NCBI GenBank assembly: GCA_035642255.1
Contig: DASQSS010000381.1
Span: 1-48,084 of the forward strand
From: Ktedonobacterales bacterium
GTDB taxonomy: Bacteria; Chloroflexota; Ktedonobacteria; Ktedonobacterales; JADMIN01
Reading direction: 5' to 3'
Length of the DNA: 48,084 nucleotides
Below, piece by piece: positions 1,695 to 40,756 of the stretch; position 1 is the stretch's first letter, and every line of letters begins with the position of its first letter. Position numbers and translations under genes: made by a program. Under the pieces are notes generated by a model. That model had not been told where the DNA came from. It was given only the letters and a program-made list of their open reading frames with translations, and ran no database searches.

Positions 1695-3302
<1,608 letters not shown>

Positions 3303-23292: not shown

Positions 23293-24099
23293 TCACGGCG
23301 TCACTGGAATCGCGGGCGCATGGTAGAAACTTGGACTCGTCTCTGTCTCTGCGCCGAGTGGCAAGAGGAGTGTCGGCGCCGGCGACTGTCGCACGATCTG
23401 TGTCGCGACGGCCCCCGCGAAGAAACGCTCGTTGCGCGCTCGGCTGTGCGTCGTCATAACGATGGCGCCGATGCGCTGCCGCTTCGCGAGGCGCACGAGC
23501 GCGGTTCCCGGCTCACCCAGCAGAATCTTCGTCGTGACCGGAGCGGTTGTCCGCTCAGCGGTTTCGCTCTGGAGATGGCGCAGGTAGCTGACGATCTCGT
23601 GGACACGCGCCAGGCGAGTCCGCCGGATGGTGGATGCCAGCGCGCCAAGCAGCTTTGAGGACAGCGCCATCGGGACGACGTGCGTCAACACCACCTCACC
23701 ACCGAACACCTCGGCCAGCGAACAGGCCAAAGGAATCGCTCGCTCAGCATGCTTGTGGCCATCCAGCGGCACGACAACCGTTGGGTGGCGCGCCGTCAGC
23801 AGGGTCGCGGGCGCCAGGTTCGCTGGCCAGAAGAGCAGTGGTGTATGCAGGCGCAGCAGCGCCCACGACGTCGTGTGTGGATACCACACGATCTCTGTCA
23901 GGTCGCGCCGCTGCGGAGTCAACAGAATGAGATCCGCCTGGCGCGACCCGGCCTCTGACGCCGCTGATGGCATCGGCGACTCGACCAGCTCCGCCGAGAC
24001 GAATGTTCCCTGAAAACGCTGGGCTAGCGCGGAGCCAACCGTGAGCGCTAGCTTCGCATCCATATCTGGAGAACGTGGCGTAACGATCGTGTGAAACAT
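23293..24099 (-). CDS. Universal stress protein, tandem USP domains (USP-1)
   Basis: Two USP halves. The C-terminal ATP-binding-type block is VMTTHSRARNERFFAGAVATQIVRQSPAPTLLLP. ATG 24099 is preceded by GGAGGCAGG. Confidence 0.85.
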   Translation of the reverse strand: MFHTIVTPRSPDMDAKLALTVGSALAQRFQGTFVSAELVESPMPSAASEAGSRQADLILLTPQRRDLTEIVWYPHTTSWALLRLHTPLLFWPANLAPATLLTARHPTVVVPLDGHKHAERAIPLACSLAEVFGGEVVLTHVVPMALSSKLLGALASTIRRTRLARVHEIVSYLRHLQSETAERTTAPVTTKILLGEPGTALVRLAKRQRIGAIVMTTHSRARNERFFAGAVATQIVRQSPAPTLLLPLGAETETSPSFYHAPAIPVTP

Positions 24100-24197
24100 A
24101 GCCTGCCTCCATTCAGGCGCCGCCATCAGCCATGCTGTGCGCTGGGGTATCCAGTGGAGTCATGACCTGACGTAACGCCCCTTCAGTGTCGGCGCCA

Positions 24198-24221
24198 GGT
24201 CATCACAGCGCCATCACGAAG
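24198..24221 (-). promoter_or_regulatory. Composite box CTTCGTGATG-N4-TGTGATGAC upstream of USP-1
   Basis: The minus-strand sequence is CTTCGTGATGGCGCTGTGATGACC, which matches hsp20-upstream 36899-36922 at 19 of 24 positions. It lies ~100 nt upstream of the USP-1 ATG. Confidence 0.55.
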
Positions 24222-24241
24222 CGAGGTGGCGCTCTCACGCC

Positions 24242-24250
24242 GTCATCACA
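24242..24250 (-). promoter_or_regulatory. Second GTCATCACA (TGTGATGAC) box in the USP-1/gsp spacer
   Basis: Exact 10-mer CGTCATCACA at 24241-24250. On the minus strand it is preceded by TTGACGGCGTAC. Confidence 0.45.
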
Positions 24251-24296
24251 GTACGCCGTCAAGATACCGGTCTGGAGGCGCCTACAGTCTATGCCC

Positions 24297-24305
24297 GTCA
24301 TCACA
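24297..24305 (-). promoter_or_regulatory. Third GTCATCACA (TGTGATGAC) box in the USP-1/gsp spacer
   Basis: Exact 10-mer CGTCATCACA at 24296-24305. The minus-strand ATGTGATGACG 11-mer is identical to the hsp20 copy. Confidence 0.45.
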
Positions 24306-24498
24306 TACATGGGTAGGTCAATATAGACATAATGTGAGATTTTTGTGACATGCGAGACAGCGCTCGTGCGAGACGTGTGATATCCTCGTTGGATGATGTC
24401 GCATGTGCGGCTGAGAGTGGTTGCAGGCGCCCTTTGTGGACGTTTACCAGGTCGCACAAGATATCATCCGGGAATCCGGATGAGTCGGAGGGGTGAAC

Positions 24499-25071
24499 AT
24501 GAAGACCATTGTTGGCATGTTCGAGAACACGCGCGATGTCGATGCGGTCCTGGCCGAACTCGAGAAGCACGGCTTCAACAAGAACGATGTGAGCGTGGTC
24601 GCTCGCCGTGAGGTGCTCAAGGAAAGCGGTCTCGACATCACGACGGGCGCTGAGGTGGGCGCCATTACGGGAGCGACAACGGGTGGCGTCGCTGGCTTGT
24701 TGATTGGCCTGGGCGCGCTGACGATTCCTGGCATCGGACCGATCGTTGCGGCAGGCGAGTTCCTGACGTGGGTTGGCGCGACGGTGCTGGGCCTGGCTGC
24801 TGGAGCCATCGGTGGTGGCCTGCTCGGTGGTCTGGTGGCGCTGGGTCTGCCAGAGCATGAGGCGAAGGTGTATGTCGAGGGCATCAAGCGCGGCAACCTG
24901 ATCGTCGCAGTGCGCGCGACTGACGAGCGCCTTGCCGAAGCGGAGCAAATCTTCCGCGCTGGGAATGCTGTTGACATCAACACGCGTCGCCAGGAGTGGG
25001 AAGAGGACATCGTTCCAGTGGGCGCGATGAGCCCCACGGAAGAGGCTGGCTATCCCACCACAGAGGCGTAA
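24499..25071 (+). CDS. YflT/general-stress-protein-17M-like protein with central glycine-zipper membrane segment
   Basis: MKTIVGMFENTRDVDAVLAELEKHGF... resembles the YflT N-terminal domain. The centre is GAITGATTGGVAGLLIGLGALTIPGIGPIVAAG. A second alpha/beta module follows (EAKVYVEGIKRGNLIVAV). Confidence 0.65.
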   Translation: MKTIVGMFENTRDVDAVLAELEKHGFNKNDVSVVARREVLKESGLDITTGAEVGAITGATTGGVAGLLIGLGALTIPGIGPIVAAGEFLTWVGATVLGLAAGAIGGGLLGGLVALGLPEHEAKVYVEGIKRGNLIVAVRATDERLAEAEQIFRAGNAVDINTRRQEWEEDIVPVGAMSPTEEAGYPTTEA

Positions 25072-25132
25072 GGTTACGCACGTAACCTGCTCCCTCACCT
25101 TGCTCCCTCGCACAGTGAGAGCGCGGTGACGT

Positions 25133-25171
25133 GGCCCCCGATTCTGGGCGAAAACCCTCGAATCGGGGGCC
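25133..25171 (+). terminator. Hairpin terminator after the YflT-like gene
   Basis: 12-bp perfect stem GGCCCCCGATTC / GAATCGGGGGCC with a 15-nt loop, followed by ATTGTCATT. Confidence 0.5.
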
Positions 25172-25436
25172 ATTGTCATTCTCCCCAACCCAACTCCTAT
25201 GGCTCACGGCGCGATGCGAACAGCTCCCGACTACGAGCGCGCCGCGTGATTGAGAGTGATTGAGACAAGTATGTGAGATGTGCGGCTCGAATTGAGATGA
25301 GAATGTTCATTGGCGGGGATAGGTTCAGAGCGACGGCGCGAGCGTCAGCCTCGCGGAGTAGGCTCTAACGCTCAGGTCAGCCGTCAGCCCGCTGGCGCAT
25401 CACTGACAAGCCAGCCGGTAAGAAGGAGCGTTTCTC

Positions 25437-25877
25437 ATGACGCAGCCCGCACCCGTGCAAACGGTCGATCGTATGTCGCTGATCGTCTTTTCTGGAACCG
25501 TGGACAAGTTGCTAGCCGCCTCCATCCTCGCGACTGGCGCCGCCGCGATGGGACTGGAAGTCGAAATCTTCCTCACGACGTGGGGTATCTTGTCGTTCCG
25601 CAAAGACGACTATCTGACCAACACGCGCCTCAGCAAGGACTTCGAAGAATATGGCCCTGCCATGATGGAAGCCATGCAGGCGAAAAAGGCTACCTCATGG
25701 ATGGAGAACCTGCGCGGCGCCAAAGAAATCGGCGACGTGAAGGTGTTCGCGTGCAGCATGACGATGGAACTGTTCGGCATCAAGCAAAGCGACCTGGACC
25801 CAATCGTGGACGAAGTCACTGGCGTCGCGACGTTTGTCGAACGGGCTAAGGACGCCAAAGTCACACTGTTCATCTGA
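25437..25877 (+). CDS. DsrE/DsrF-like sulfur-relay family protein
   Basis: LIVFSGTVDKLLAASILATGAAAMGLEVEIFLTTWG and VFACSMTMELFG fit the DsrE-like (COG2210-type) pattern. AAGGAG SD upstream. Confidence 0.75.
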   Translation: MTQPAPVQTVDRMSLIVFSGTVDKLLAASILATGAAAMGLEVEIFLTTWGILSFRKDDYLTNTRLSKDFEEYGPAMMEAMQAKKATSWMENLRGAKEIGDVKVFACSMTMELFGIKQSDLDPIVDEVTGVATFVERAKDAKVTLFI

Positions 25878-26001
25878 TTCTCGTTGTCTCGGACCCTTGG
25901 TTTGATGAGCCCGAGATAGAAGGGCGCCGCCGCACCTGCGGCAAGACAGAACACGCTCAGCCGGCGCCGCCCTTTCCAGCATAGGATGGAGGTTTCCCAT
26001 C

Positions 26002-26250
26002 ATGACAGCGCCACAGGATCTCAAAGTCAGCATGGATATCGACGCACGCGGCAGCTTCTGCCCTGGCCCGCTCATGGAGCTGATTCGCGGTATCAAGTCC
26101 CTCAAAGTGGGCGACGTGCTCGCGGTGCGGTCGGGTGATCCCGGCTCGAACAAGGACATCCCCGCGTGGATCCAGAAGGCTGGGCACGAATTCATCGGCG
26201 CTTTCCCCGAAGCTGACTGCACACGCTTCGTTGTGCGCAAGATGCGTTAA
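26002..26250 (+). CDS. TusA/SirA-like sulfurtransferase
   Basis: 82 aa with the diagnostic DARGSFCPGPLM (CPxP) motif. Confidence 0.85.
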   Translation: MTAPQDLKVSMDIDARGSFCPGPLMELIRGIKSLKVGDVLAVRSGDPGSNKDIPAWIQKAGHEFIGAFPEADCTRFVVRKMR

Positions 26251-26264
26251 GAGGGAGCCAAACG

Positions 26265-27467
26265 ATGGCACGGCGTATCGTCATTATCGGTGGCGGGGTT
26301 GGCGGGACGATCCTCGCTAACGTGCTCGCTCGCCGACTCTCGCCCGAAGAAGCTGATGTAACCCTGATTGACAGCACAGGTGTCCATGTCTATATGCCCG
26401 CCTGGCTGTATGTGCCATTCAGCGATGAGCCAGTGAGTCGGAGCCAGTTCGAGCGCCCCGAAGACACCCTGCTGAATCACCGCGTGCACCTGGTCGTCGG
26501 TGAGGTCACGAAGATCGACCCCGCCAATCGTACGCTGGAAGTGAGTCACGGGACCAGCCGCCCGACCATCAAAGGCACGGGCGGGGCCACCAGCGCGATG
26601 TACATGTACGATGAGCTTGTGCTGGCGACGGGCGCCCGGCTGGCTCCGCAAGACCTGACCGGTCTGAGCGAGGCGGCTGGCGCCTATAACGAGTTCTACA
26701 GCGCGCAGGGGGCGTACAACCTGCGCGAGGCGCTCCAGTCGTTCGAGGGTGGGCGCATCGTGGTCGCCGTCGGCGGCATTCCCTACCGATGTCCGCCTGC
26801 GCCGCTGGAGTTCACATTCCTGCTCGATGAGTGGCTGCGACGCCACCACTTGCGCGACAAGACCGAGATCGAGTACCTCTTCCCGCTGCCACGCGTGTTC
26901 CCCATTGAGACCGTGGCTGATGTCGCCGCGCCGCTGCTCGAACAGCAGGGGGTAAAGACGCGGCTGTTCTTCAATGCCGATGAGGTGGATGGCGAGCACA
27001 AGGTCATCAAGTCGCTGGAGGGCGAAGAGGTTCCCTACGATCTGTTGGCTCTCATTCCCCCACATCGCGGCTCGCAGGTGGTCGAGGCGAGCGGGCTGGG
27101 CGATCCACAGGGGTGGGTGGTGACCAACCGCACGACACTGGAAGTAACCAATCACGAGCACATCTATGCGCTCGGCGACGCGACCAATCTGCCCGTTTCA
27201 AAGAGCGGGTCTGCGGCGCACTTCGAGGCAAAGGCGCTGGCTACGCGGCTCGTGGCGCTGGTGCGGGGCGAGCAGCCAGATTCCGAGCATGCCGAGTATG
27301 ATGGTGAGGTGATGTGTTTCCTGGAGACAGGAAACAACCGCGCGACGCAGCTGGTCTTCAACTACGAGAACCCGCCGCATCCGCCGAAGCCAAGCCTCTA
27401 CTATCATATGGAGAAGCAGCTCTTCAATCACGCCTACTGGTACATCGTCCCGCAAGGGATCGTGTAG
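26265..27467 (+). CDS. FAD-dependent sulfide:quinone oxidoreductase-like flavoprotein
   Basis: RIVIIGGGVGGT dinucleotide fold. Conserved-Cys contexts PYRCPPAPLEF and EVMCFLETG resemble the two redox cysteines of SQR-type enzymes. Confidence 0.8.
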   Translation: MARRIVIIGGGVGGTILANVLARRLSPEEADVTLIDSTGVHVYMPAWLYVPFSDEPVSRSQFERPEDTLLNHRVHLVVGEVTKIDPANRTLEVSHGTSRPTIKGTGGATSAMYMYDELVLATGARLAPQDLTGLSEAAGAYNEFYSAQGAYNLREALQSFEGGRIVVAVGGIPYRCPPAPLEFTFLLDEWLRRHHLRDKTEIEYLFPLPRVFPIETVADVAAPLLEQQGVKTRLFFNADEVDGEHKVIKSLEGEEVPYDLLALIPPHRGSQVVEASGLGDPQGWVVTNRTTLEVTNHEHIYALGDATNLPVSKSGSAAHFEAKALATRLVALVRGEQPDSEHAEYDGEVMCFLETGNNRATQLVFNYENPPHPPKPSLYYHMEKQLFNHAYWYIVPQGIV

Positions 27468-27477
27468 GCGCTCATGA

Positions 27478-27525
27478 CCATCTCAGCATGGCTGGCGCGA
27501 GCGCGCCGGGGTCGTGCTGAGATGG
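27478..27525 (+). terminator. Hairpin terminator after the SQR-like gene
   Basis: 11-bp perfect stem CCATCTCAGCA / TGCTGAGATGG enclosing a second GGCGCG/CGCGCC helix, followed by CTTCGTGCGTTGTATTCTT. It begins 11 nt after the stop. Confidence 0.55.
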
Positions 27526-27592
27526 CTTCGTGCGTTGTATTCTTAGTGCGTCAGGCCAGAGCCACCAGGACGATCTGGTCAACACATGTGGA

Positions 27593-27630
27593 CGATTCAG
27601 CGGCGCACCCCCGCCAGCGCCGCTGAATCG
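27593..27630 (+). other. 14-bp perfect hairpin in the SQR/cytochrome b spacer
   Basis: CGATTCAGCGGCGC / loop ACCCCCGCCA / GCGCCGCTGAATCG. No U-tract. ~170 nt upstream of the 41-aa ORF. Confidence 0.6.
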
Positions 27631-27801
27631 CTCGTTCATCCGATCCGGCGTTCCGGCGTTTGTGACTCAAGACACGTTTACCCCCAGGCGCAGGGCGCCG
27701 CCACATGACGAACTTATTCCGCCACGCGCTACCCACTGCTACCACACGCTATGTCGTACGCGCTCACCTTGACACGGGAGCGATCCGAGAGGAGAAACAA
27801 C

Positions 27802-27927
27802 GTGTCTCAGTACGTACAGTTTGGCGCTATTCTCATCACCGTCCCTAACCTGATTGTCATCGGCACGATGATCGTTGTGTTCGCGCTTGGCCTATGGCTG
27901 AAGCTTCCGAGCCATACGAACGAATAG
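27802..27927 (+). CDS. 41-aa single-TM peptide (below the ORF-track length cutoff)
   Basis: GTG at 27802 is preceded by GAGAGGAGAAAC. It encodes VSQYVQFGAILITVPNLIVIGTMIVVFALGLWLKLPSHTNE. Its stop (27925-27927) is embedded in the TAGGAG SD of the cytochrome b gene. Confidence 0.4.
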   Translation: MSQYVQFGAILITVPNLIVIGTMIVVFALGLWLKLPSHTNE

Positions 27928-27936
27928 GAGATCATC

Positions 27937-29574: not shown

Positions 29575-29616
29575 TCGCCAGCGTGTCTGGCGTTCACGGA
29601 GTCCAAGACGTGACGT

Positions 29617-29670
29617 GCCCTCGCCTTCTGTTCCCCTCATTTCATATGAGAGGGGTCAGGGGGTGAGGGC
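29617..29670. repeat. GC-rich REP-like imperfect palindromic element (copy 2)
   Basis: GCCCTCGCCTTCTGTTCCCCTCA / TTTCATA / TGAGAGGGGTCAGGGGGTGAGGGC. It shares the GGGTGAGGGCGC end with copy 1 and is followed by an 11-mer whose inverse recurs at 29817-29827. Confidence 0.6.
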
Positions 29671-29840
29671 GCGTCGCCATATGCGCTGGAGTGATCTGTT
29701 TTCGTGTCTCTCTGTGTTCCAGCGGCTTCCGCGTCGCTCACAGTGGCGTCACAAAGCGCGCGTCGTATGTCAACCTCCGCTCTCAGGGCAGGGCGCGGAT
29801 GCGTGACCGGTGTGCGGCGCATATGGCCCTCGCGCCTCGG

Positions 29841-29859
29841 CTGTGACGCGCCTGTGACG
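29841..29859 (+). promoter_or_regulatory. Direct repeat CTGTGACG x2 (11-bp period) upstream of USP-2
   Basis: CTGTGACG at 29841-29848 and 29852-29859. TGTGATCGTGA follows at 29890-29900. ~140 nt upstream of the USP-2 ATG. Confidence 0.35.
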
Positions 29860-29998
29860 TCGACGAGAGACTGCCAGGGGGAACTGTGCTGTGATCGTGA
29901 GCCACTGCCCATACAGTGATCAGTGGTGGAGTGGAATATAGCGCGACGCAACACCCTCGCGCTCCCTGGCATGTCTGGTCGCGGACAGGAGGAAATCG

Positions 29999-30922
29999 AT
30001 GTTCACACGAGTGCTGGCGCCCATTGACACGCATCCTGATGCGATTGTCTCGGTGGCATTGGCCGAGCAGATTGCGCGTCATACACACGCCGAGCTATTC
30101 CTCATGCGTGTCGTCCCGGATGCGACGTCGAAAGGCGACGTCGTCGCCCACAGGGAAAGTCTCGAGCGTTTGGCTGCGGACATCACCGTGCGTGGGGGAC
30201 TGGAACCGCATATCGAAGTGGTTACCGGTCGTCCTGACGCCCGCATCCTCGAAACCGCTGAGCGGGAGGATGTCGATCTAATTGTCCTCGCGCCGCATGC
30301 TCGCGCTGGACTCGACGCGCTTCGTCACCGCAGCGTCACGACCCGGCTGATCTCGCATACGGCGGTTCCCCTCCTCGTCGCGCCTGAGCACAACATCGGC
30401 TCCTGGCCCGCTGGGCTCCTCTCCGCGGCGACCTCGCTGGTGATCGTGCCCGTGGACGGCACAGCGCTCTCCGAGCAAGCTATTGGCATTGGCGAACGCA
30501 TCGCCGAGACATGGGAGCGCCCGCTGCTGCTGTTGCGGGTCATCGAGCCATTCAGCTTGTATGGCGCTGGACCGACGACGACGCTCCTGGAGCGGCAGCT
30601 CAGCGAGGAAGACGCTCAGCAGGCGCATAGCGTGCTGAGTAATCTGCGGGCGCGTGTGGCGCGGCAGACGAATGTCGCGGTGGAGGCGATGGTCAAGCAG
30701 GGCGCCGCGGATCGCGTCATCGCGCAAGCCGCCGATAGCTATCCGGGCAGCCTGATCGTGATGAGCACGCATGGACGCAAGGCGACCGAGCGTGCGGTGC
30801 TGGGGAGTGTCGCGCTGAATGTGTTGCGGCGCAGCCACGAGCCGACACTGATTCTGCCGCCTATGGCTGTCATGCGGCGGGCGATGGCGCATGCGGGCGC
30901 CACAGCCGAGTTGGAGTGGTAA
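29999..30922 (+). CDS. Universal stress protein, tandem USP domains (USP-2)
   Basis: Two USP halves (MFTRVLAPIDTHPD...; VIVPVDGTALSEQA...; MSTHGRKATERAVLGSVALNVLRR). GGAGGAAA SD upstream. Confidence 0.85.
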   Translation: MFTRVLAPIDTHPDAIVSVALAEQIARHTHAELFLMRVVPDATSKGDVVAHRESLERLAADITVRGGLEPHIEVVTGRPDARILETAEREDVDLIVLAPHARAGLDALRHRSVTTRLISHTAVPLLVAPEHNIGSWPAGLLSAATSLVIVPVDGTALSEQAIGIGERIAETWERPLLLLRVIEPFSLYGAGPTTTLLERQLSEEDAQQAHSVLSNLRARVARQTNVAVEAMVKQGAADRVIAQAADSYPGSLIVMSTHGRKATERAVLGSVALNVLRRSHEPTLILPPMAVMRRAMAHAGATAELEW

Positions 30923-30982
30923 GGCGCCAAACGGCAGGCGTAGTGTCGCGCGTGCACCGCGTTGTTGAAAGGATATGAGCGC

Positions 30983-33007
30983 ATGGTCACGTCTCCGATT
31001 GAACGGACGCCAAGAACGACGCCCGCAGAGGAGAGACCGCCCAGCGCGGGCGCGGAATCGCGCGCGACGACGCTCTGGCGTTTGGCGCGTCGCTATCCCA
31101 TTCCACTGGTCGCGGCGGGACTGCTGCTGATCAGCGGCATGCTCGCGCTGGCGGCTCCGGCGAACCTCTGGCGCTGGCCTCTGCTGCTGATTATCGTAGT
31201 TGGAGGCGCGCCGCTGCTGATCGAGACGGCGCGCCAACTTGTCCACCGTGAATTCGGCGTGGATCTGCTCGCCGCGATGGCCATCGTCGGTTCCCTGCTT
31301 CTCGGGGAGTATCTGGCGGGCGCGGTCATCGTGCTGATGCTCTCGGGCGGTGAGGCGCTCGAAGCATTCGCGCTGAGCCGCGCGCGCCGCTCGCTCTCCG
31401 CGTTGGCGGAGCGGGCGCCCCGTGTCGCGCACCTCTTCGTCAATGGTGAGCTGGTGACGGTCGCGGCTGACACAGTGGAGGTCGGCGCGCAGGTCATTGC
31501 CAAGCCAGGCGAGGTCATTCCCGTGGATGGCGTCGTGGCCGAGGGAAGCTCCAGTGTGAGCGAGGCTGACCTGACAGGTGAACCGGTCCCATTGCGCAAG
31601 GAGCCAGGGTCGCTCGTCCTCTCAGGCAGCCTCAATCTCGATAGCCCGTTGCGCATCAACGCAACCAAGCGCAGCGCCGAGAGCCAATACGCGCAGATCG
31701 TGCGGCTGGTTGAAGAGGCGCAAGCCAGCAAGGCGCCCATCCACCGCCTGGCTGATAGATATGCGGTGTGGTTCACTGCCATCGCGGTGGTCGTGGCCGC
31801 CGTCGCGTGGATCCGTACCGGGCAGCCAGTAGATGCGCTCGCTGTGCTGGTCGTCGCGACCCCCTGCCCGTTGATTCTGGCGACCCCGATCGCCATCATG
31901 TCTGGCATTGACCGCGCCGCGCGCGACGGCCTCATTACCAAGAGCGGCGCGACCATTGAAGATCTTGGCGGGGTCGATGTGGTCGTCTTTGATAAGACTG
32001 GAACCCTGACCCTGGGCATGCCAAAGCTGACCGAGGTGGCGGCGGTCTCTGTGGCGAGTGAAGGCGCCGCCACGATAGCGAGTAGAGCGACGCCTGATCA
32101 GGATACGCTGATCGCGCTGGCCGCTTCGGTCGAGCAATATTCGCCACACATTCTGGCGCGGGCTGTGGTTGACGCCGCGCACGAACGAGGCGCCCAATTG
32201 CGCGCTGTTACCGATATGCGCGAGATTCCCGGCCAGGGCATTGAGGGTAATGTCGCCTATGCCGACCACGGCGTTGACCAGATCAAGGTCGCGGTTGGCA
32301 ATCGCGCCTACCTGGGCAGCCTCGGCATTGACCTGCCCTCTGCCGTCACCGATGAACGGGCGCGCCGTACCGAGCAAGGGCAAATTGTGAGCTTCCTCGC
32401 GCTCGACGGTCAGTTCATGGGTCTGCTCGTCTTCGCTGATGTGCCACGCCCGGAGCTGGCGCAGCTCACGCCAGAGTTGAAGGCGGCAGGCATCAAGCAA
32501 ACGGTGCTCCTGACAGGCGACGGCGTGACCGTCGCGGAGCAAATTGGCAAGCTGGCGCACGTTGATCGTGTGGTGGCGCACTGCCTGCCAGAGAACAAAG
32601 TGGCCGTCGTGCGTGAGCTGCAGGAGAGCGGGAGCCATGTGCTTATGGTGGGTGATGGCGTCAACGACGCGCCTGCGCTGGCGACGGCGTCTGTGGGCAT
32701 CGCCATTGGTTCGCAAGGGCTGACAGCCGCCTCATCCGCCGCCGACGCGGTGCTACTCTCGCCGAACATCCTGCGCATCGCCTCGTCGGTGCGGCTGGGG
32801 CGTCAGGTAATGCGGGTCGCGCGCCAGGGCATCGGGATCGGCATTGGGTTGAGCATCATCGCGATGATTTTCGCCGCTTTAGGATATATTCCACCGACAG
32901 AGGGCGCGCTGCTGCAAGAGGTTATCGACGTGATCGTCATCCTCAACGCGCTGCGGGCGGGGCGACAGGGATTGAGGGAGGAGCGACATGGCGACCAAAC
33001 CCGCTAA
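30983..33007 (+). CDS. P1B-type heavy-metal P-type ATPase with TPCP transmembrane motif, no N-terminal metal-binding domain
   Basis: DKTGTLT, LLTGDG, GDGVNDAPAL. The TM metal site reads ATPCPLILATP (TPCP). The short N-terminus has no CxxC. The start is uncertain (ATG 30983 or TTG 30962). Confidence 0.9.
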   Translation: MVTSPIERTPRTTPAEERPPSAGAESRATTLWRLARRYPIPLVAAGLLLISGMLALAAPANLWRWPLLLIIVVGGAPLLIETARQLVHREFGVDLLAAMAIVGSLLLGEYLAGAVIVLMLSGGEALEAFALSRARRSLSALAERAPRVAHLFVNGELVTVAADTVEVGAQVIAKPGEVIPVDGVVAEGSSSVSEADLTGEPVPLRKEPGSLVLSGSLNLDSPLRINATKRSAESQYAQIVRLVEEAQASKAPIHRLADRYAVWFTAIAVVVAAVAWIRTGQPVDALAVLVVATPCPLILATPIAIMSGIDRAARDGLITKSGATIEDLGGVDVVVFDKTGTLTLGMPKLTEVAAVSVASEGAATIASRATPDQDTLIALAASVEQYSPHILARAVVDAAHERGAQLRAVTDMREIPGQGIEGNVAYADHGVDQIKVAVGNRAYLGSLGIDLPSAVTDERARRTEQGQIVSFLALDGQFMGLLVFADVPRPELAQLTPELKAAGIKQTVLLTGDGVTVAEQIGKLAHVDRVVAHCLPENKVAVVRELQESGSHVLMVGDGVNDAPALATASVGIAIGSQGLTAASSAADAVLLSPNILRIASSVRLGRQVMRVARQGIGIGIGLSIIAMIFAALGYIPPTEGALLQEVIDVIVILNALRAGRQGLREERHGDQTR

Positions 33008-34124
33008 TGACCAGAAGCGCTATCTGGTGAACCTGCGCGAGGAACGCGATTCCTCGGCGCTCTATCGTGGCCTGGCGGAGATCGAGAAGGACCCACGCCT
33101 GGCGGACGTCTATCGGCGCATGTCCGAGGTTGAGAGCCGCCACGCCGCCACCTGGGGCGCCCTGCTGCGCGACGCGGGGCAATCCGCGCCGCCGGATGCG
33201 CCGACCTTGCGTGTGCGGACGCTGCTCTGGATGGCGCGACGCTTCGGCGCGGGCATGGTCTTGCCGATGATCGCCTCATCTGAGCGCGGCGCCAGCCACA
33301 GCTACGATGCGCAGCCTGAAGCGCGAGCCGCTGGCATGCCCGCCGATGAGCGCTCACACGAGCGCGTCTTTGGCATGCTGCTGCAAACGACGAAGGGCGG
33401 AGTCGCTGGCTCTGTGCTTGCGCAGCTCGAAGGGCGTCACCGTGGCACGTCGGGCGGCAATGCCTTGCGCGCAGCGGTGCTCGGCTCCAGCGACGGGCTG
33501 ACCTCCAATCTGAGCCTCGTGATGGGTGTCGCGGGCGCATCGCTCCAGCCGCACCAAATCCTGCTCACTGGACTTGCAGGACTGCTGGCTGGCGCGCTCT
33601 CGATGGCGATTGGCGAATGGCTCTCCGTGCAGAGCGCTCGCGAGCTGTATGGCAGCCAGATCAATGTCGAGCGCCAGGAGTTGGAGGCGAGGCCGGAGGA
33701 AGAGCGCGAGGAGCTCTCGCTGATCTATCAGGCCAAGGGACTAGACGCCGCCGCCGCGAATGATCTGGCCGCGCGCATCGTCTCGGACCCGACGACCGCG
33801 CTCGATACCCTCGCGCGCGAGGAGCTGGGTATTGATCCAAAGGAACTGGGCGGCTCAGCGTGGGAAGCGGCTATCGCATCGTTCATGCTGTTCGCGGTTG
33901 GCGCGATCATTCCAGTCATTCCGTTCATTTTTCTGGCAGGCCTGACCGCTGTCGCGGTCAGTATTGGGCTGAGCATTCTGGGGCTGTTCACCATTGGCGC
34001 GGGCATCACGCTGACCACGGGCTCGCCGCTGTGGAAGGCGAGTGGCCGTCAGATCATCATGGGAATCGCCGCCGCGCTGATTACGTTCGGCCTGGGTCGC
34101 CTGGTTGGTGGTGCGCTCGGTTGA
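32988..34124 (+). CDS. Erythrin/ferritin-like domain fused to VIT1/CCC1 transporter (MbfA-like iron exporter)
   Basis: The N-terminal four-helix region has two ExxH motifs (EVESRH, DERSHE). The C-terminus is a polytopic VIT1-like domain (LGSSDGLTSNLSLVMG...). The ATG overlaps the ATPase 3' end by 20 nt, with a GGGAGGAG SD. Confidence 0.85.
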   Translation: MATKPANDQKRYLVNLREERDSSALYRGLAEIEKDPRLADVYRRMSEVESRHAATWGALLRDAGQSAPPDAPTLRVRTLLWMARRFGAGMVLPMIASSERGASHSYDAQPEARAAGMPADERSHERVFGMLLQTTKGGVAGSVLAQLEGRHRGTSGGNALRAAVLGSSDGLTSNLSLVMGVAGASLQPHQILLTGLAGLLAGALSMAIGEWLSVQSARELYGSQINVERQELEARPEEEREELSLIYQAKGLDAAAANDLAARIVSDPTTALDTLAREELGIDPKELGGSAWEAAIASFMLFAVGAIIPVIPFIFLAGLTAVAVSIGLSILGLFTIGAGITLTTGSPLWKASGRQIIMGIAAALITFGLGRLVGGALG

Positions 34125-34419
34125 GTCGCGCCCGACTAAATCGCTCCCGGCAGAATTGAGGCTGGTGGGTGAGAGGACATCGAGAAACCTGGTTGATGCG
34201 CTGTGACACGTCTGTGAGCGGCGCGGCATAGGCTCTGAGTATGAGGCGATGCCCCCACCTGAGGGCGGAGCGCACAGAGAGTGATAACCATGGCACAGCG
34301 CTGGCACGGTCGCGCTCCGGCTCGAAACGTCGGACGATGATACTCCAGGCAGCGTCGCTTGAGAGCGAATCAATCATCACTCATCGGGCGCCCCGCCCTC
34401 AGGCTATTCAAGAACCATG

Positions 34420-34432
34420 CATGCAATGCATG
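34420..34432. promoter_or_regulatory. Palindrome CATGCA-A-TGCATG within an ATGCAT-rich cluster
   Basis: Read directly from the sequence. The cluster CATGCATGCAATGCATGTGTGCATG spans 34416-34440, ~55 nt upstream of the ATG at 34492. Confidence 0.35.
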
Positions 34433-34491
34433 TGTGCATGTTCACGGATGGAGCCCGCGACCGAACATGCGGGCACAGAAGGAGCGACGAC

Positions 34492-34776
34492 ATGACAACG
34501 CTGTTCACGTCTGGCAATCCGCTAAGGGATAACACGTTGACGACCGCCACCGCTACAAAGGTCACCACGCCAGCGGCGGAGGCGCCGATCGATACGAGCG
34601 CGTTGGCCGATGACGCTTATCTCGCCGAGCGGCTAGACGCCGAGCGGCTGGATCGGCAGGCGCGGCGGATCGCTACCATTGTCGCGTCGGCGCTGCTCGT
34701 CGCCGCCTTCGCAACGGGCGCTGCGACAATTCTGGTGCGGCGCTACGCGAAACAGCGCGGCGAGGCCGCCCTATAG
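34492..34776 (+). CDS. Hypothetical tail-anchored membrane protein (94 aa)
   Basis: ATG 34492 lies 7 nt after AAGGAG. C-terminal TM IATIVASALLVAAFATGAATILV. No family recognised. Confidence 0.4.
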   Translation: MTTLFTSGNPLRDNTLTTATATKVTTPAAEAPIDTSALADDAYLAERLDAERLDRQARRIATIVASALLVAAFATGAATILVRRYAKQRGEAAL

Positions 34777-34829
34777 GGCCGCAGGGCGACATGCTCGCGG
34801 CTCCGCTACCATCGCGGAGGGAGGGCGCC

Positions 34830-35738: not shown

Positions 35739-35805
35739 CGTCGTATGCTTCTGGCATGAGGCGCCAGGGGATGGCGCGGGTGCTGTGAGAAACGGAGCGG
35801 AAGCC

Positions 35806-36690: not shown

Positions 36691-36898
36691 GGCGACACGC
36701 ATAGCTGTGTAGGCCGCCACGGTCAGCGGAAGGGCGACGAAAGTTTTACGCCATTTCACTGAGCGTGGCGGCTCGTTCTGTGACCCATCTCTCAATACGC
36801 GCCCGAGCCATGTGAAACGATGAAGACACAAGGAAGACACGAGCGGATGCAGGTCGCGCCTCTCACGGGATGACGCAAAGCGTGACATTGACGCCTGG

Positions 36899-36922
36899 CT
36901 TCGTGATGCGCATGTGATGACG
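36899..36922 (+). promoter_or_regulatory. Composite box CTTCGTGATG-N4-TGTGATGACG upstream of hsp20
   Basis: CTTCGTGATGCGCATGTGATGACG. Two GTGATG direct repeats 11 bp apart. It ends 118 nt upstream of the hsp20 ATG, in the same orientation relative to the gene as the USP-1 copy. Confidence 0.55.
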
Positions 36923-37039
36923 AGCGCATATGTTGTGTGTGAACGCCATGGAAGGCTCCGCGCATCGGAGCGCGGCCAGAACCAGCATGGCGTCGCATCC
37001 CGGTAACAGGATGCGGTCACGGAAAGGAAGGACACGTCT

Positions 37040-37498
37040 ATGGCAAAGGAACCGCGTGAGTTGACCTCGTGGGAACCGTTCGGCATGGTGACGCCGCTCC
37101 GTGAGGCGATGAACCGCCTGTTCGAAGACAGCTTCATCAGCCCTGCGCGCTTCGAGCCAATGTTTGGGCGCGGGCTCCCGCTCGACGTCTTCGAGGCCGA
37201 TAATGAGTTCATCATTGACGCCTCGCTGCCGGGCGTGAAACCCGAAGACCTGAAGGTGAGCGCGACCGACGACAGCCTGACCATCCGCGCAACAATGAAA
37301 CACGAGACGCACGACGAGCAAAAGGGCTCCTATGTGCGGCGTGAGCGTCAGGACGGCGAGGTCGTTCGCTCGATAGCGTTCGCCACTCCGATTGATCCGT
37401 CGAAGGTCAACGCCCACTACGAGCATGGCGTCTTGCGCGTTACGGCGCCGAAAGCCGAGGCCGCTAGACCACGACAGATTGATGTCACCGTGCACTAA
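37040..37498 (+). CDS. Small heat-shock protein, Hsp20/alpha-crystallin family
   Basis: Alpha-crystallin domain (LDVFEADNEFIIDASLPGVKPEDLKV...HGVLRVTAPK). AAGGAAGGA SD upstream. Confidence 0.93.
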   Translation: MAKEPRELTSWEPFGMVTPLREAMNRLFEDSFISPARFEPMFGRGLPLDVFEADNEFIIDASLPGVKPEDLKVSATDDSLTIRATMKHETHDEQKGSYVRRERQDGEVVRSIAFATPIDPSKVNAHYEHGVLRVTAPKAEAARPRQIDVTVH

Positions 37499-37532
37499 GC
37501 TCCATCACACTGAACAAGGCTGATGAGGCCGC

Positions 37533-37548
37533 ATCGTGACATCACGAT
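37533..37548. promoter_or_regulatory. 16-bp perfect palindrome ATCGTGA-CA-TCACGAT
   Basis: 7-bp arms read directly from the sequence. It lies between the hsp20 stop and its terminator hairpin, ~110 nt upstream of USP-5. Confidence 0.4.
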
Positions 37549-37549
37549 C

Positions 37550-37583
37550 ACGCGGGTGAGTGGCACGGTTCGCTCACCCGCGT
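37550..37583 (+). terminator. Hairpin terminator after hsp20
   Basis: 11-bp perfect stem ACGCGGGTGAG / CTCACCCGCGT with a 12-nt loop, 52 nt after the stop. No strong U-tract. Confidence 0.45.
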
Positions 37584-37586
37584 CTA

Positions 37587-37613
37587 ATAGATGTTGATAG
37601 ATGCTCATAGATG
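37587..37613 (+). promoter_or_regulatory. Three helically phased direct repeats ATAGATG (exact 10-bp period)
   Basis: ATAGATG at 37587, 37597 and 37607, immediately after the hsp20 terminator and 42 nt before the USP-5 ATG. Confidence 0.5.
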
Positions 37614-37654
37614 CGAAGGACAACGGCAACGACGCGCCAGAGAGGGGTGTCGAC

Positions 37655-38905
37655 ATGTCACAACAACAACAAACGCCTGAACCAGAGCGCGCGCGGACTG
37701 ATGCGGAGCCGTCGATGACGTCGCCTTCACTCTCCGAATTTGAAGCGCGTCAGGCGCATGAAGAGGCTCTGAAGCGCGCCAATCGTCCCGTGGCAGGCGA
37801 GGTGATGGCGGGAGCGCACGGGCGGGTCGAGGAGGAGACCCGGCGTTTGAGCGAGCGCATGACGCGCGAAGAGCAGGAGCGCCGTAAAGCGTTGGCGCTC
37901 GCCGATAAGCCAACTGCCGCATCCGCCCCCACCGCTGGCCCGGTGTCCGCGTCTGCGCGCCTCTTGCCGACGCCTGAGCGTATCCATTCGACGCTCGTTG
38001 CGCTAGATGGCTCGCCCTTCGCGGAGCGGGCGCTGCCCTATGCGGCGGCGCTGGCGCGCCTTACAGGTAGCGAGCTCATGCTTGGAACGTGCCTGCGCCG
38101 CGACGGGGCGCCAGTCGTCGAAGCCATCACGGCGCAGGCGACGGCGGGCGAGGCGCGCGACGGCGAGTCAGCCCAATTCTGGCGATCGCTCGTCAGCGCA
38201 CGCGCCCAATTGCTGGCGGATGGCGTGACGACGCGTGCGAGCGTTGTCTATGCTCCAGACGCCGCCGATGGGCTAGTCGCTCTGCAAACGACGATTGGAG
38301 CGGAGGCGCTGGCCGTGGCGACGCACGCGCGCACAGGAATCGAGCGGGCGGCGCTGGGCAGTGTCGCGGATGAGGTGGCGCGTCGCGGGCGTGGGCTTAC
38401 CCTGGTCGTCCCGCCATTCGCGCCAGAGGCCCCTCTGGATGGTGTCACGTTCGCGCGGGCATTGGTCCCGCTGGATGGCTCGGCGCTGTCTGAGCAGACC
38501 CTGCGCGCCATCCAGCCGCTCTTGCGGCGCGACACGACGGATGATACGTCTGGGCGGCGACATTTGAGTGAGCTGACGCTCTTCTTCGTCGCCGAAGACC
38601 ATGCGCAGATCAGAGACGCGGAATATTACCTCGATGATCTGCGCGAGGCGTTGCTGCGCGAGGCGACCGCGCCAACAACGATCACCACGCGGGTGATCCT
38701 TGGCTCAGCGCCCGGCGCCATCGTCGCTGAGGCCGCCGGGAACTCCGCGACGGATCCTACCCCAGACGGGCGTCACGACCTGATCATCATGGCGACCCAC
38801 GGGCGCAGTGGCCTCGGACGCTGGTTCTATGGCAGCGTGGCGATGTATGTCCTCGCGCATAGCGACGTTCCGGTGCTACTCGTACGCGCCAGCCAGACGC
38901 CATAG
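37655..38905 (+). CDS. Universal stress protein, tandem USP domains with ~110-aa charged N-terminal extension (USP-5)
   Basis: LVALDGSPFAERALPYAAALA..., VATHARTGIERAALGSVADEV, MATHGRSGLGRWFYGSVAMYVL. The N-terminus is Glu/Arg/Ala-rich. Confidence 0.8.
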   Translation: MSQQQQTPEPERARTDAEPSMTSPSLSEFEARQAHEEALKRANRPVAGEVMAGAHGRVEEETRRLSERMTREEQERRKALALADKPTAASAPTAGPVSASARLLPTPERIHSTLVALDGSPFAERALPYAAALARLTGSELMLGTCLRRDGAPVVEAITAQATAGEARDGESAQFWRSLVSARAQLLADGVTTRASVVYAPDAADGLVALQTTIGAEALAVATHARTGIERAALGSVADEVARRGRGLTLVVPPFAPEAPLDGVTFARALVPLDGSALSEQTLRAIQPLLRRDTTDDTSGRRHLSELTLFFVAEDHAQIRDAEYYLDDLREALLREATAPTTITTRVILGSAPGAIVAEAAGNSATDPTPDGRHDLIIMATHGRSGLGRWFYGSVAMYVLAHSDVPVLLVRASQTP

Positions 38906-38961
38906 CGCGCCGCAGCCAGTACGGCGCTCGGGCGCGGTGTAGCCGCTGACCCGGTTCAACT

Positions 38962-39009
38962 GCGGATTCGCCCTCTGATCCACCATCTGGCGTCAGAGGG
39001 CGAATCCGC
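38962..39009 (+). terminator. 17-bp perfect hairpin after USP-5
   Basis: GCGGATTCGCCCTCTGA / 14-nt loop / TCAGAGGGCGAATCCGC, 57 nt after the stop. No U-tract. Confidence 0.45.
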
Positions 39010-39237
39010 GTCTGCCGCCTGACGTGACGCCTCCTCCCGGTATCCCCTCGCATCCACTCACTATGCCACTTCTCCACAATGCCCCGCGCAAGATGACACG
39101 GTTCGTACACAGGGCGCTTGACGCGGGTAGCGCGCTCCAGCGACAATGCGGCAATGAAGCTGCGCGGCGGTTCGCGCGCCTGCAACTGCCGTGAACGCAC
39201 ACCTGTGATTCGTTGTCTAGCTGATGGGAGGCGAAGC

Positions 39238-40269
39238 ATGCGCGACCGCGGAGGCAGCGCAGATCGCATGACCACGTCCCCGGGAGGTTCCTCTGGCTCG
39301 TCTGGCTCTCAACTCATCCGCATGCTGACTCTGGTGGGGCTTTCGGCGCTGCTGGTGGCGGCGCTCGTCGTGGTGGATCTGTTGGAGCTGAGCGCGCACA
39401 ATCCTGTGGAGGCTCTCAGCCCGCACTATTACATGGCGTTGGGCAATTCGCTCTCATTCGGCTATCAGCCGAACTTCGACTTCAGCTCTGGCTTCGCTGA
39501 CGTCATCGTCAACGATATGCGCAAGGCGAATCTCACTGGCCCAACGCAGCAGCCCGTGACCGAACTGGTCAATTACGCGTGCGCGGGCGAGACCACGGCG
39601 TCGATGATTGACGGAACCTGCGCGGCGCGGTTCGCGCACCACGGTTCCTATACGGGTCCACAGCTGCAGGCGGCGATCTCCTTCCTCAAGGATCAGCGTC
39701 ATCGCGGCCGTGTCAGCCCGATTACGCTGGAAGTGGGTGTCAATGACGTCGAAAACGACTTCAATCCCGCCACCTGCACAGCCAACGCGAGCGCTGACGC
39801 CGATCTTGCCGCGATGGACGCCAACCTGACGGGAGTCATTCTTCCTGGCCTGGTTGACGCGCTAGGAACCCCGGTAGGCAAAAGTGCGGGTGACCTGCAT
39901 CTGCTGAATTACTACAATCCCTACGCGCAGGTGTGTCCTAACTCCCCGACGTTTCTCCATCTGCTCAATGATCATCTGGCAGCCGACGGGGCGAAGTTCC
40001 GCATCCCCGTGGTGGACGTCTATAGCGCGTTCGGTGGCGACAGCGCGACCGCCAGCCATATCTGCGACTACACGTGGTATTGCGACCCGCGCTTCCATGA
40101 CATCCATCCGACGAATCTGGGCTATCAGGTCATTGCGCATGCGGTCGAAACCGCGCTGGGTCTGCCCGGCTCGTCGCTGGCGCTCGGCTCGGCTCCCGCC
40201 CTATCCGCGATGGGATTCGCGCGCGAAGCGGCATTCTGGCGTGGCCCGACTGCAGCGCGCCAGGCATGA
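39238..40269 (+). CDS. SGNH/GDSL-family hydrolase with N-terminal membrane anchor
   Basis: Block I ALGNSLSFGY, block II CAGETT, block III LEVGVNDV, block V DIHPTNLGY. TM LTLVGLSALLVAALVVV. ATG 39238 lies 6 nt after GGGAGG. Confidence 0.75.
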   Translation: MRDRGGSADRMTTSPGGSSGSSGSQLIRMLTLVGLSALLVAALVVVDLLELSAHNPVEALSPHYYMALGNSLSFGYQPNFDFSSGFADVIVNDMRKANLTGPTQQPVTELVNYACAGETTASMIDGTCAARFAHHGSYTGPQLQAAISFLKDQRHRGRVSPITLEVGVNDVENDFNPATCTANASADADLAAMDANLTGVILPGLVDALGTPVGKSAGDLHLLNYYNPYAQVCPNSPTFLHLLNDHLAADGAKFRIPVVDVYSAFGGDSATASHICDYTWYCDPRFHDIHPTNLGYQVIAHAVETALGLPGSSLALGSAPALSAMGFAREAAFWRGPTAARQA

Positions 40270-40348
40270 GGAAGCGCATCGACATGTGTTCGCCTGATCG
40301 AGGCGCTGGCTACGGGTTACGAGATTCACCTATCTGCTGGAGGGCAAC

Positions 40349-40756
40349 ATGGTCAATACCGCTCTACAACGGACTGATTACGTTCGGCTGATCGCACTGG
40401 GCATTCTGGTTATCCTCGAAGGTCTGGCAGTCGTGAGCACAGTGCTCAACATTGTGTTTCTGCCACTCGGCACGATCTATCCGAATGTGGATTCTGTCAC
40501 GATCCTTGTGCTGCCCGTCATCATCGGCCTCGTCGCGCACAGGGTGGAGGCTGCCATCACGCTCACCGTCCTGCCCTTCTTCATCCTGGCGCTGGTCTAC
40601 ACGTCGGTGTATGCGCCAGTATGGAATATAGACCTCTTCCAGTTGGGTACGCTGGCTGGGCGTGTCGCGGGCGCCACATTCCTGCTGGGTGGGCTCGGGA
40701 CATTCGGGTGGATGGTGCGGCGGGCAATCATGCGCGCCTCACAAAAGGGGGTGTGA
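40349..40756 (+). CDS. Hypothetical 4-TM membrane protein
   Basis: Four hydrophobic helices. GGAGGG SD upstream. No family recognised. Confidence 0.5.
   Translation: MVNTALQRTDYVRLIALGILVILEGLAVVSTVLNIVFLPLGTIYPNVDSVTILVLPVIIGLVAHRVEAAITLTVLPFFILALVYTSVYAPVWNIDLFQLGTLAGRVAGATFLLGGLGTFGWMVRRAIMRASQKGV

Follow-up and report, generated by a model that had tools for sequence, protein, structure and literature searches.

The 48,084-nt window analyzed here (contig DASQSS010000381.1, positions 1 to 48,084, to which window coordinates below refer) comes from a Ktedonobacterales bacterium and contains a 17-kb cluster of stress genes (23293-40756) that very probably forms one co-regulated unit, its promoters carrying a common direct repeat of TGTGA that recurs in related genomes. 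Open reading frames (ORFs) of the window were scanned with Pfam, and selected proteins with NCBIfam. An earlier note, made from the sequence alone, had described this region as a plus-strand stress island with five two-domain universal stress proteins (USPs), unusually long spacers and no regulator gene, and most of that description holds. From 24.5 to 40.8 kb the plus strand carries every convincing gene, with USP1 divergent from the YflT-like gene, and Pfam recovers five USPs, Hsp20, the YflT-like protein, a DsrE/TusA/SQR sulfide module, a cytochrome b-like protein, a P1B ATPase and a VIT1 exporter (Table 1). Four of the five USPs give two Pfam stretches, while USP1 gives one, so the two-domain description needs amending for that gene. 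Cluster spacers measure 292-424 nt, compared with approximately 13-226 nt between co-directional genes elsewhere in the window. Among the ORFs scanned with Pfam, no regulator is encoded inside the cluster; indeed, no ORF scanned in the whole 48-kb window has a transcription factor, DNA-binding, sigma factor or kinase domain.

The USP paralogues share 24-33% identity over their main alignments and appear to be old. The ATPase has no HMA domain, nor does it have the hemerythrin domain found at the C-terminus of some P1B-5 members, and at residue 300, among its transmembrane segments, it carries the motif TPCP; we take this motif, together with the missing HMA domain, to be the signature of the P1B-5 group. 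P1B-5 ATPases have been linked to nickel and iron transport (PMC9388753). The VIT1 protein shows a weak, sub-threshold rubrerythrin-like match at its N-terminus. Two small membrane-associated ORFs (41 and 94 aa, the latter called sm94 below) lie in stretches that the earlier note had counted as spacer; the 41-aa ORF is paired with the cytochrome b-like gene in a relative (L001) as well. At the right-hand end, the genes for a GDSL lipase and a 135-aa membrane protein are syntenic with their neighbors in relatives, but they have no stress domain and lack the shared box, and they probably lie outside the regulon.

The shared box emerged from the spacers, where the earlier note had proposed looking for a common motif. 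TGTGA words occur at 7.4 per kb in the cluster spacers versus 1.06 per kb elsewhere in the window, and the motif they form is a direct repeat, TGTGA-N6-TGTGA, present in four exact copies where 0.07 would be expected for the window (57 times over expectation) and in eight copies with up to one mismatch (1.93 expected). All of the exact and one-mismatch copies fall in cluster spacers. A composite position weight matrix (PWM), built from the sites of relatives only and then scanned over the window, gave eight matches above 12 bits in the cluster and none in the remaining 30 kb (0.24 expected from simulation), and other intergenic regions of the window did not exceed 4.2 bits. Six cluster promoters and one orphan box carry PWM matches, the highest score belonging to the promoter of sm94-USP3-USP4. 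A CRP-type palindrome, tried as a candidate, was not enriched.

The position of the box relative to the predicted -10 element suggests how it works. In 39 hand-picked sites from relatives, an A stands at +28 in 32 and a T at +32 in 31, with a TAnnnT hexamer beginning exactly 11 nt past the second half-site and a weaker half-site pair 32 bp upstream. Because these sites were picked by eye, the geometry test was repeated without selection on an independent set of loci, which supplied 217 distinct matches to the 16-mer. In 26% of these the hexamer begins at offset 11 and in another 15% at offset 12, compared with about 1% (range 0-6%) at most other offsets, and partner half-sites peak 31-32 bp away. 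With TAnnnT at a fixed 11 nt, the box takes the -35 position: a -10 element is present and a -35 element is not, which is the layout of pho-box promoters. A scan for consensus sigma-70 promoters returned three against 3.4 expected, sigma-70 and terminator scans being uninformative in DNA of such high GC content. We regard it as very likely that the units of the cluster share one activator-dependent promoter type.

The length of the spacers is explained by what each of them holds: first a terminator hairpin, next an activator-dependent promoter and last a 5' untranslated region of approximately 50-250 nt. Folding places hairpins past the stop codons of the YflT, SQR, cytochrome b, USP4, Hsp20 and USP5 genes (z from -2.9 to -8.1). 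No Rfam model matched the window at its gathering threshold, and the hairpin-rich spacers thus fit no known riboswitch or small RNA. The predicted leader of sm94-USP3-USP4 is strongly conserved in an alignment with the closest relatives and holds a near-invariant 27-nt block, CTCCAGnnAGnnTCGCTTGAGAGCGAA, at 34343-34369, which occurs once per genome and in the closest relatives only. A multi-stem fold is predicted for this leader, with 15 pairs showing double-sided changes in RNAalifold, though from five sequences, too few to claim a structure. The leader has neither an Rfam match nor a conserved leader peptide; it may be a lineage-specific cis-regulatory RNA.

Table 1. Genes, predicted promoters, hairpins and leader of the cluster, in window coordinates (promoter scores are from the PWM; "exact" and "1 mismatch" refer to TGTGA-N6-TGTGA)
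Feature	Position	Strand	Evidence and remarks
USP1, C-terminal USP domain with degenerate N-terminal half	23293-24126	(-)	PF00582, E 1.8e-20, residues 116-255
USP1 promoter (predicted)	24186-24250	(-)	Distal pair 24235-24250, proximal pair 24203-24218; matches with 1 mismatch; weak -10 CGACAC 24186-24191; 23.4 bits
YflT-like promoter (predicted)	24333-24397	(+)	Distal TGTGAGATTTTTGTGA 24333-24348, proximal 24365-24380; -10 GATGAT 24392-24397; exact; 31.7 bits
YflT-like general stress protein, glycine-zipper hydrophobic core	24493-25071	(+)	PF11181, 34.3 bits vs cutoff 26.2
YflT-like terminator hairpin, strong	~25126-25179	(+)	z = -7.0
DsrE-TusA-SQR promoter (predicted)	25261-25325	(+)	Distal 25261-25276, degenerate proximal 25293-25308; -10 TAGGTT 25320-25325; 1 mismatch; 17.8 bits
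DsrE_2	25437-25877	(+)	Pfam
TusA	26002-26250	(+)	Pfam
SQR-like flavoprotein	26265-27467	(+)	Pfam; NCBIfam type III SQR 327 bits, below cutoff
Two hairpins after SQR-like gene	27473-27532, 27593-27630	(+)	Folding
41-aa membrane ORF	27802-27927	(+)	Conserved in L001; in a spacer of the earlier note
Cytochrome b-like protein, 545 aa	27937-29574	(+)	Pfam Cytochrom_B_N_2
Cytochrome b terminator hairpin	29578-29689	(+)	z = -8.1
Orphan box TGTGACGCCACTGTGA	29721-29753 (box at 29738-29753)	(-)	Decayed -10 GCCGCT; exact; 31.4 bits
USP2-ATPase-VIT1 promoter (predicted)	29842-29917	(+)	Distal half-sites 29842-29868, proximal TGTGCTGTGATCGTGA 29885-29900; -10 TACAGT 29912-29917; exact; 27.5 and 14.9 bits
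USP2, tandem	29999-30922	(+)	Pfam
P1B ATPase	30962-33007	(+)	NCBIfam TIGR01525, 520.8 bits, above cutoff
VIT1 exporter	32988-34124	(+)	Pfam; 20-nt overlap with ATPase gene
sm94-USP3-USP4 promoter (predicted)	34170-34234	(+)	Weak distal ~34170-34185, proximal TGTGACACGTCTGTGA 34202-34217; -10 TAGGCT 34229-34234; exact; 39.1 bits
sm94-USP3-USP4 5' leader (predicted), ~250 nt	34241-34491	(+)	Alignment with closest relatives
sm94, 94-aa membrane-anchored protein	34492-34776	(+)	Conserved in relatives; in a spacer of the earlier note
USP3, tandem	34791/34830-35738	(+)	Pfam
USP4, tandem	35719/35806-36690	(+)	Pfam
USP4 terminator hairpin	36712-36773	(+)	z = -3.6
Hsp20 promoter (predicted)	36870-36934	(+)	Distal ~36870-36885, proximal CGTGATGCGCATGTGA 36902-36917; -10 TATGTT 36929-36934; 1 mismatch; 24.7 bits
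Hsp20	37040-37498	(+)	Pfam
Hairpin between Hsp20 and USP5	37550-37583	(+)	Folding
USP5, ~110-aa N-terminal extension	37601/37655-38905	(+)	Pfam
Hairpin after USP5	38962-39009	(+)	Folding
GDSL lipase	39118-40269	(+)	Pfam
135-aa membrane protein	40349-40756	(+)	Syntenic neighbor

Conservation in relatives supports both the cluster and its box. USP2 as query found no close relative, and the ATPase was used as anchor instead; its closest homologues (76-81% identity) belong to Ktedonobacterales metagenome-assembled genomes (MAGs), whose genes were mapped with Pfam and tblastn on loci labeled L001, L002 and so on. The gene order in these relatives is YflT, DsrE, TusA, SQR, (cytochrome b), (USP2), ATPase, VIT1, a small ORF, USP, USP, GDSL lipase, the 135-aa protein, RRM, S21 and MBL, so the synteny comparison suggested in the earlier note shows an order conserved down to the housekeeping neighbors. 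The order sm94-USP3-USP4 recurs in L002, L003, L007 and L008, and the GDSL lipase and 135-aa protein are kept in L002, L003 and L007; in place of Hsp20 and USP5, relatives have a gene for a 212-aa lipoprotein-like product. This retention of gene order marks the cluster as a stable chromosomal feature. A mobile genomic island was ruled out, as the order is kept with the RRM/S21/MBL neighbors and there is no integrase, no transposase and, anywhere in the window, no tRNA or tmRNA; GC content is 0.59-0.68 in the cluster versus 0.60-0.69 in its flanks. In a more distant Ktedonobacterales locus (L005, 2806-7905), a USP/ATPase pair adjoins a [NiFe]-hydrogenase operon, one gene of which encodes a cNMP-binding protein, and no TGTGA box was found in that locus.

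Orthologous spacers of relatives carry the same box in the same position and orientation although their flanks have diverged. Almost every Ktedonobacterales locus has the box before its ATPase gene; it also stands, in more than one copy, before the YflT orthologue of L003, as well as before OsmC-TusA-SQR in L123 and L125 and before sm94-USP3-USP4 in L002, L003, L007 and L008. Exact boxes reach a density of 11.4 per 100 kb in ATPase-anchored Ktedonobacterales loci versus 0.37 in controls comprising 69 loci (1.08 Mb) from other phyla with homologous ATPases. The orphan box of the window finds an explanation in the same comparison: between cytochrome b and USP2/ATPase, relatives carry minus-strand genes for phosphoketolase (xfp), acetate kinase (ackA) and a small SHOCT-like protein, all absent from the window at 29575-29998 when compared with L001 4410-9003. 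Since the orphan box aligns with the L001 promoter that drives SHOCT-ackA-xfp in relatives, it is most probably a scar left by deletion of this unit in the lineage of the window. Upstream of one box in the complete Ktedonobacterales genome CP126532.1 (L012, ~7925-7996), approximately four tandem copies of a 13-nt unit, GGCGAGGTGAGAT, run into TGTGA half-sites and may represent an expanded half-site array.

A candidate for the factor that reads the box is encoded in other relatives. The homologous cluster of L011, a locus with an ATPase 65% identical to that of the window, includes an operon of a PAS histidine kinase (HK) and an OmpR-family response regulator (RR) with boxes immediately upstream, as well as a second kinase (DUF4118-GAF-PAS-HisKA) divergent from this operon; the same kinase and RR adjoin the ATPase in L015 and L016. 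An independent test drew on 80 metagenomic loci (527 kb) anchored only on RR orthologues of 72-78% identity. In these the PWM found 152 sites scoring more than 12 bits, 83 of which exceeded 20 bits; the 1.08 Mb of control loci gave nine and zero, respectively. Counted over 130 sites above 20 bits, the first downstream gene encoded a USP in 28, a GltD-like Fe-S flavoprotein (oxidoreductase) in 14, a DoxX-like membrane protein in 12, the P1B ATPase in nine, a multicopper oxidase in eight, the HK-RR operon itself in seven, a zinc-dependent alcohol dehydrogenase (ADH) in four and a short-chain dehydrogenase/reductase in three. YflT, OsmC, acetyl-CoA transferase and PP2C followed two sites each, and OtsA (trehalose-phosphate synthase) and alanine dehydrogenase one each. 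The box-bearing set is larger in relatives, where phosphoketolase/acetate kinase, alanine dehydrogenase, ADH and OtsA also belong to it.

The RR consists of Response_reg and Trans_reg_C domains. Over its full length, its best PDB matches are RegX3, KdpE, RpaA, MtrA and PhoP, and its DNA-binding domain is nearest to E. coli KdpE (E 2e-24). It scores below every NCBIfam equivalog cutoff (PhoB, MtrA, KdpE), reaching 201 against a cutoff of 325 for the KdpE model, and databases name it "response regulator transcription factor" or sometimes "KdpE". We infer that this KdpE-like RR binds the box and activates transcription from it, an assignment that we consider fairly probable, and that the source genome of the window encodes it at another site. 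A precedent for such separation is GCA_035763125.1, where the RR and HK genes, with upstream boxes, lie on one contig (L168) and the box-bearing ATPase/USP cluster on another (L014). A further MAG, GCA_036383155.1, holds two RR paralogues, one by the ATPase (L015, 5328-6029) and one in an HK-RR-USP-USP-multicopper oxidase cluster (L171, 10001-10723), which may reflect either true paralogy or a mixed bin.

The two kinases offer hints of the signal. For the GAF domain of the divergent kinase (L011 6135-8894; orthologues in L090, L100, L168, L170 and others), the only PDB relatives are DosT and DevS/DosS GAF-A (E 3e-9 and 1.5e-7). Its motif G-x-P-x-G-H-P-x-x-R-S-F-L-G-x-P is invariant in 18 of 18 distinct orthologues, and the motif histidine aligns with His149 of DosS and His147 of DosT, a numbering confirmed by the spacing to Tyr171 and Tyr169. 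In DosS and DosT, this histidine is the proximal heme ligand (PMC4082495). The co-operonic kinase appears to be cytoplasmic. Its long forms (L011 3941-5761; L015, L016, L116, L135, L164, L170) have a PAS domain with three invariant cysteines, C-x10-C-x2-C-P-L-P, which could form a site for redox sensing, an Fe-S cluster or a metal. This domain is missing from many other kinases encoded next to the RR, which measure only 290-314 aa. No PDB entry is related in sequence to the sensor half of the PAS kinase.

Taken together, these observations are best accommodated by a model, more probable than not as a whole, in which the window holds the main target cluster of a Ktedonobacterales stress regulon that is controlled by the KdpE-like RR, encoded elsewhere, in response to oxygen, redox or gas stress. 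Its units would be USP1; YflT-like; DsrE-TusA-SQR; USP2-ATPase-VIT1; sm94-USP3-USP4; and Hsp20, possibly with USP5; in addition, there is the orphan box of the lost xfp-ackA unit. Each unit would start at an activator-dependent promoter with (c)TGTGA(c)-N5/6-(c)TGTGA 11 nt before a TAnnnT -10 element and, usually, a second, weaker half-site pair 32 bp upstream. The RR, apparently autoregulated in relatives, would probably be phosphorylated by two kinases, the co-operonic cytoplasmic kinase and the divergent membrane kinase. The likely output would be a persistence program that combines USPs and a chaperone with Fe(II)/metal export and sulfide oxidation, to which relatives would add fermentative and NAD-regenerating enzymes. 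That six cluster promoters share an improbable, phylogenetically conserved box supports the proposal of the earlier note that these genes form one regulon.

As to the signal, both the kinase domains and the regulon content (USPs, small heat-shock protein, Fe/Ni and Fe/Mn exporters, sulfide oxidation, OsmC and, in relatives, genes for fermentative enzymes, alanine dehydrogenase and trehalose-phosphate synthase) fit oxygen limitation or redox/gas stress, with O2, NO, CO and H2S as candidate ligands. Only tentatively would we name oxygen, redox state or a gas, rather than a metal, as what is sensed. The sulfide module hints that H2S may be sensed besides O2; H2S is a ligand of DosS (PMC9062744).

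Several observations weigh against parts of this model. The -10 element of the USP1 promoter is poor, and there is no box before the cytochrome b gene (PWM maximum -1.7), USP5 (0.9) or the GDSL lipase (-6.8); the 135-aa protein gene likewise has none (-15.9). Neither the window nor the contigs of its closest relatives (L001-L004, L007-L010) yielded the RR, and what ties it to the box elsewhere is co-localization and site architecture. Its recognition helix is unlike those of KdpE, PhoP and MtrA, so that its binding specificity cannot be read from sequence. In the GAF domain of the membrane kinase, the distal Tyr171 of DosS is replaced by Leu, and there is an insertion of ~40 aa, for which reason heme binding and ligand selectivity are only predicted. 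Finally, the frequent ATPase, VIT1 and multicopper oxidase targets fit a metal signal equally well.

This last point leads to an alternative in which the same box and two-component system serve primarily metal homeostasis (Fe(II), Ni or Cu), with the kinase sensing metal, for example via its PAS cysteines, and the USPs as accessory members. The box stands before the ATPase in nearly every Ktedonobacterales locus, although the use of the ATPase as anchor for these loci accounts for part of that association. ATPase and multicopper oxidase genes do recur as first genes after sites (nine and eight cases), but in the RR-anchored loci the targets are mostly USPs and oxidoreductases, and xfp, ackA, ald and adh do not suit a pure metal response. 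The invariant C-x10-C-x2-C of the long kinase forms and the tie of P1B-5 ATPases to Ni/Fe transport (PMC9388753) would suit a metal sensor; however, the co-operonic kinase lacks a periplasmic sensor loop of the CusS/CopS type, and the second kinase has a GAF domain of the DosS/DosT type. ATPase homologues in Gemmatimonadota (L030, L032, L036, L037, L041, L043, L045, L051 and others) are immediately preceded by an HK and an OmpR-type regulator ~39% identical to the Ktedonobacterales RR, so the association of ATPase and two-component system may be older and metal-related. Weighing these points, we consider a primarily metal-directed system unlikely but still a serious competitor.

Alternatively, the box could mark the regulon but be read by another OmpR-family or orphan regulator, or by a dedicated sigma factor, the RR and HK genes themselves being targets. 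Co-localization does not reveal whether a gene beside the box encodes its regulator or is one of its targets; one MAG holds two RR paralogues (L015 and L171), and in L171 a gene for an extracytoplasmic function (ECF) sigma factor is 8 kb away from that of the RR. Nevertheless, no other DNA-binding protein recurs beside the sites in the loci examined, and the distance to the -10 element (11 or 21 nt) matches no -35/-10 geometry of a sigma factor. Tandem repeats phased at 11 bp, and the placement of the second pair three turns of the helix further up, suit dimers of a winged-helix RR, and positive autoregulation is the norm for RR operons, which makes control by a different factor quite improbable. 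Least probable by far is that there is no common control, the grouping being one of chance or history and TGTGA compositional noise: intergenic DNA in the window is less GC-rich than coding DNA, and the sevenfold higher density of lone TGTGA in spacers could be an effect of composition, but the enrichment of the phased 16-mer, the low scores of other intergenic regions, the retention of position and orientation between diverged flanks, the fixed distance to the -10 hexamer and the want of any site above 20 bits in control DNA all speak against it.

Among known systems, DosS/DosT-DosR of Mycobacterium tuberculosis is the closest functional analogue of the proposed regulon. Both include several USPs, an alpha-crystallin small heat-shock protein and a P-type ATPase, and in both, two kinases appear to feed one regulator, whose operon is apparently autoregulated here. 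GAF-A of DosS/DosT is homologous to the GAF domain of the membrane kinase in relatives, the proximal histidine being conserved. However, DosS and DosT carry HisKA_3, while this kinase has HisKA, is anchored in the membrane via DUF4118 and has PAS apparently in place of GAF-B. DosR is of the NarL/LuxR type and binds a palindromic Dev box, whereas the candidate here is OmpR/KdpE-like (Trans_reg_C) and its presumed site is a direct repeat, and the targets here extend beyond a DosR-like set to the sulfide module, the VIT1 exporter and a multicopper oxidase. DosR binding sites are tandem, as here (PMC3177182). Matches to the DosR box (up to two mismatches, GGGAC-N4-GTCCC core) numbered 13 in the window against 28 expected, with none in the cluster spacers, where the earlier note had also seen none. 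Membership in the DosR regulon was thus ruled out by the missing Dev box, the OmpR-family regulator and the HisKA membrane kinase. The earlier note had read the cluster as a DosR-like hypoxia or dormancy regulon under a different regulator; co-regulation and a regulator other than DosR are both supported, while hypoxia or dormancy as its signal stays conjectural. It is conceivable, though less likely than not, that an order-wide persistence regulon was assembled as a mosaic of the mycobacterial DosRST system, with a heme-GAF membrane kinase and a Cys-PAS kinase acting through a KdpE-like regulator on pho-box-like promoters, and that the window holds its largest target cluster.

The operator itself resembles those of other OmpR-family regulators, for which a 5+6+5 direct-repeat box is typical. 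The GlnR box of Streptomyces, GTnAC-n6-GTnAC, has this architecture (PMC10704036), and the PhoP box of M. tuberculosis is TCACAGC-n4-TCACAGC (PMC4832192). Read on the opposite strand, the extended half-site here, GCTGTGA, becomes the PhoP half-site TCACAGC; it also fits GTnAC. Promoters of the pho-box type, as for E. coli PhoB, are alike in their 11-bp half-site period, in a box that replaces the -35 element 10-11 nt before the -10, and in extra upstream pairs. Pho and GlnR boxes differ in genomic setting, with no phosphate or nitrogen genes nearby here and stress and redox genes as targets; the Pho regulon as such was rejected, as the RR loci are flanked by genes for stress proteins and the biosynthesis of amino acids but not by pst or phoU, and the RR does not reach the PhoB equivalog score.

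The C-terminal half of KdpD, DUF4118-GAF-HisKA, matches one kinase of the relatives. The KdpDE system was nonetheless excluded: the loci contain no kdpFABC, Pfam finds only DUF4118, GAF, PAS and HisKA in the kinase and no N-terminal KdpD domain, and the KdpE score falls short of its cutoff as given above. The RR also differs from KdpE in its recognition helix, and the box here is GC-rich, while the kdp operator is AT-rich. The sigma-B general stress regulon of Bacillus shares YflT, OsmC-type, USP-type and PP2C content, as well as dispersed units under one promoter type. It differs in that its promoters are those of an alternative sigma factor rather than carrying a two-component activator box, and no RsbV, RsbW or sigma-B genes were seen here.

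Ktedonobacteria are aerobic, mycelial, spore-forming Chloroflexota of soils, abundant in soils and at extreme sites, and to our knowledge their gene regulation is essentially unstudied. A literature search returned no paper on a stress regulon, this box, this two-component system or a DosR link in the group. The shared operator and the candidate regulator and sensors go beyond the earlier note. Where there had been a list of genes, there is now a regulatory model that specifies an operator and the geometry of its promoters and names candidate genes for the regulator and the sensors, and the PWM provides a direct means to annotate the regulon in many Ktedonobacterales MAGs. If the GAF kinase binds heme, a gas sensor of the DosS/DosT type would have been rewired to another regulator family in another phylum with similar output, and such rewiring, if true, would bear on how obligate aerobes enter hypoxic persistence.

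Elsewhere in the window, isocitrate lyase and malate synthase of the glyoxylate shunt are encoded at the left end (203-3302). Their ORFs overlap (203-1531 and 1317-3302), the malate synthase start probably lying later, and no box was found upstream of isocitrate lyase, where only 200 nt are available. Four ORFs have no Pfam match: 5241-7400(-), 719 aa; 9962-11503(-), 513 aa; 21584-22999(+), 471 aa; and 42030-42905(+), 291 aa. The 471-aa ORF abuts the cluster on its left and has no NCBIfam match either. To the right of the cluster, 41281-41655(-) encodes an RRM-type RNA-binding protein whose glycine-rich tail contains a 33-nt tandem repeat at 41314-41379. After this gene, which is conserved beside rpsU (S21) in relatives, comes the best canonical terminator of the region (41195-41226).

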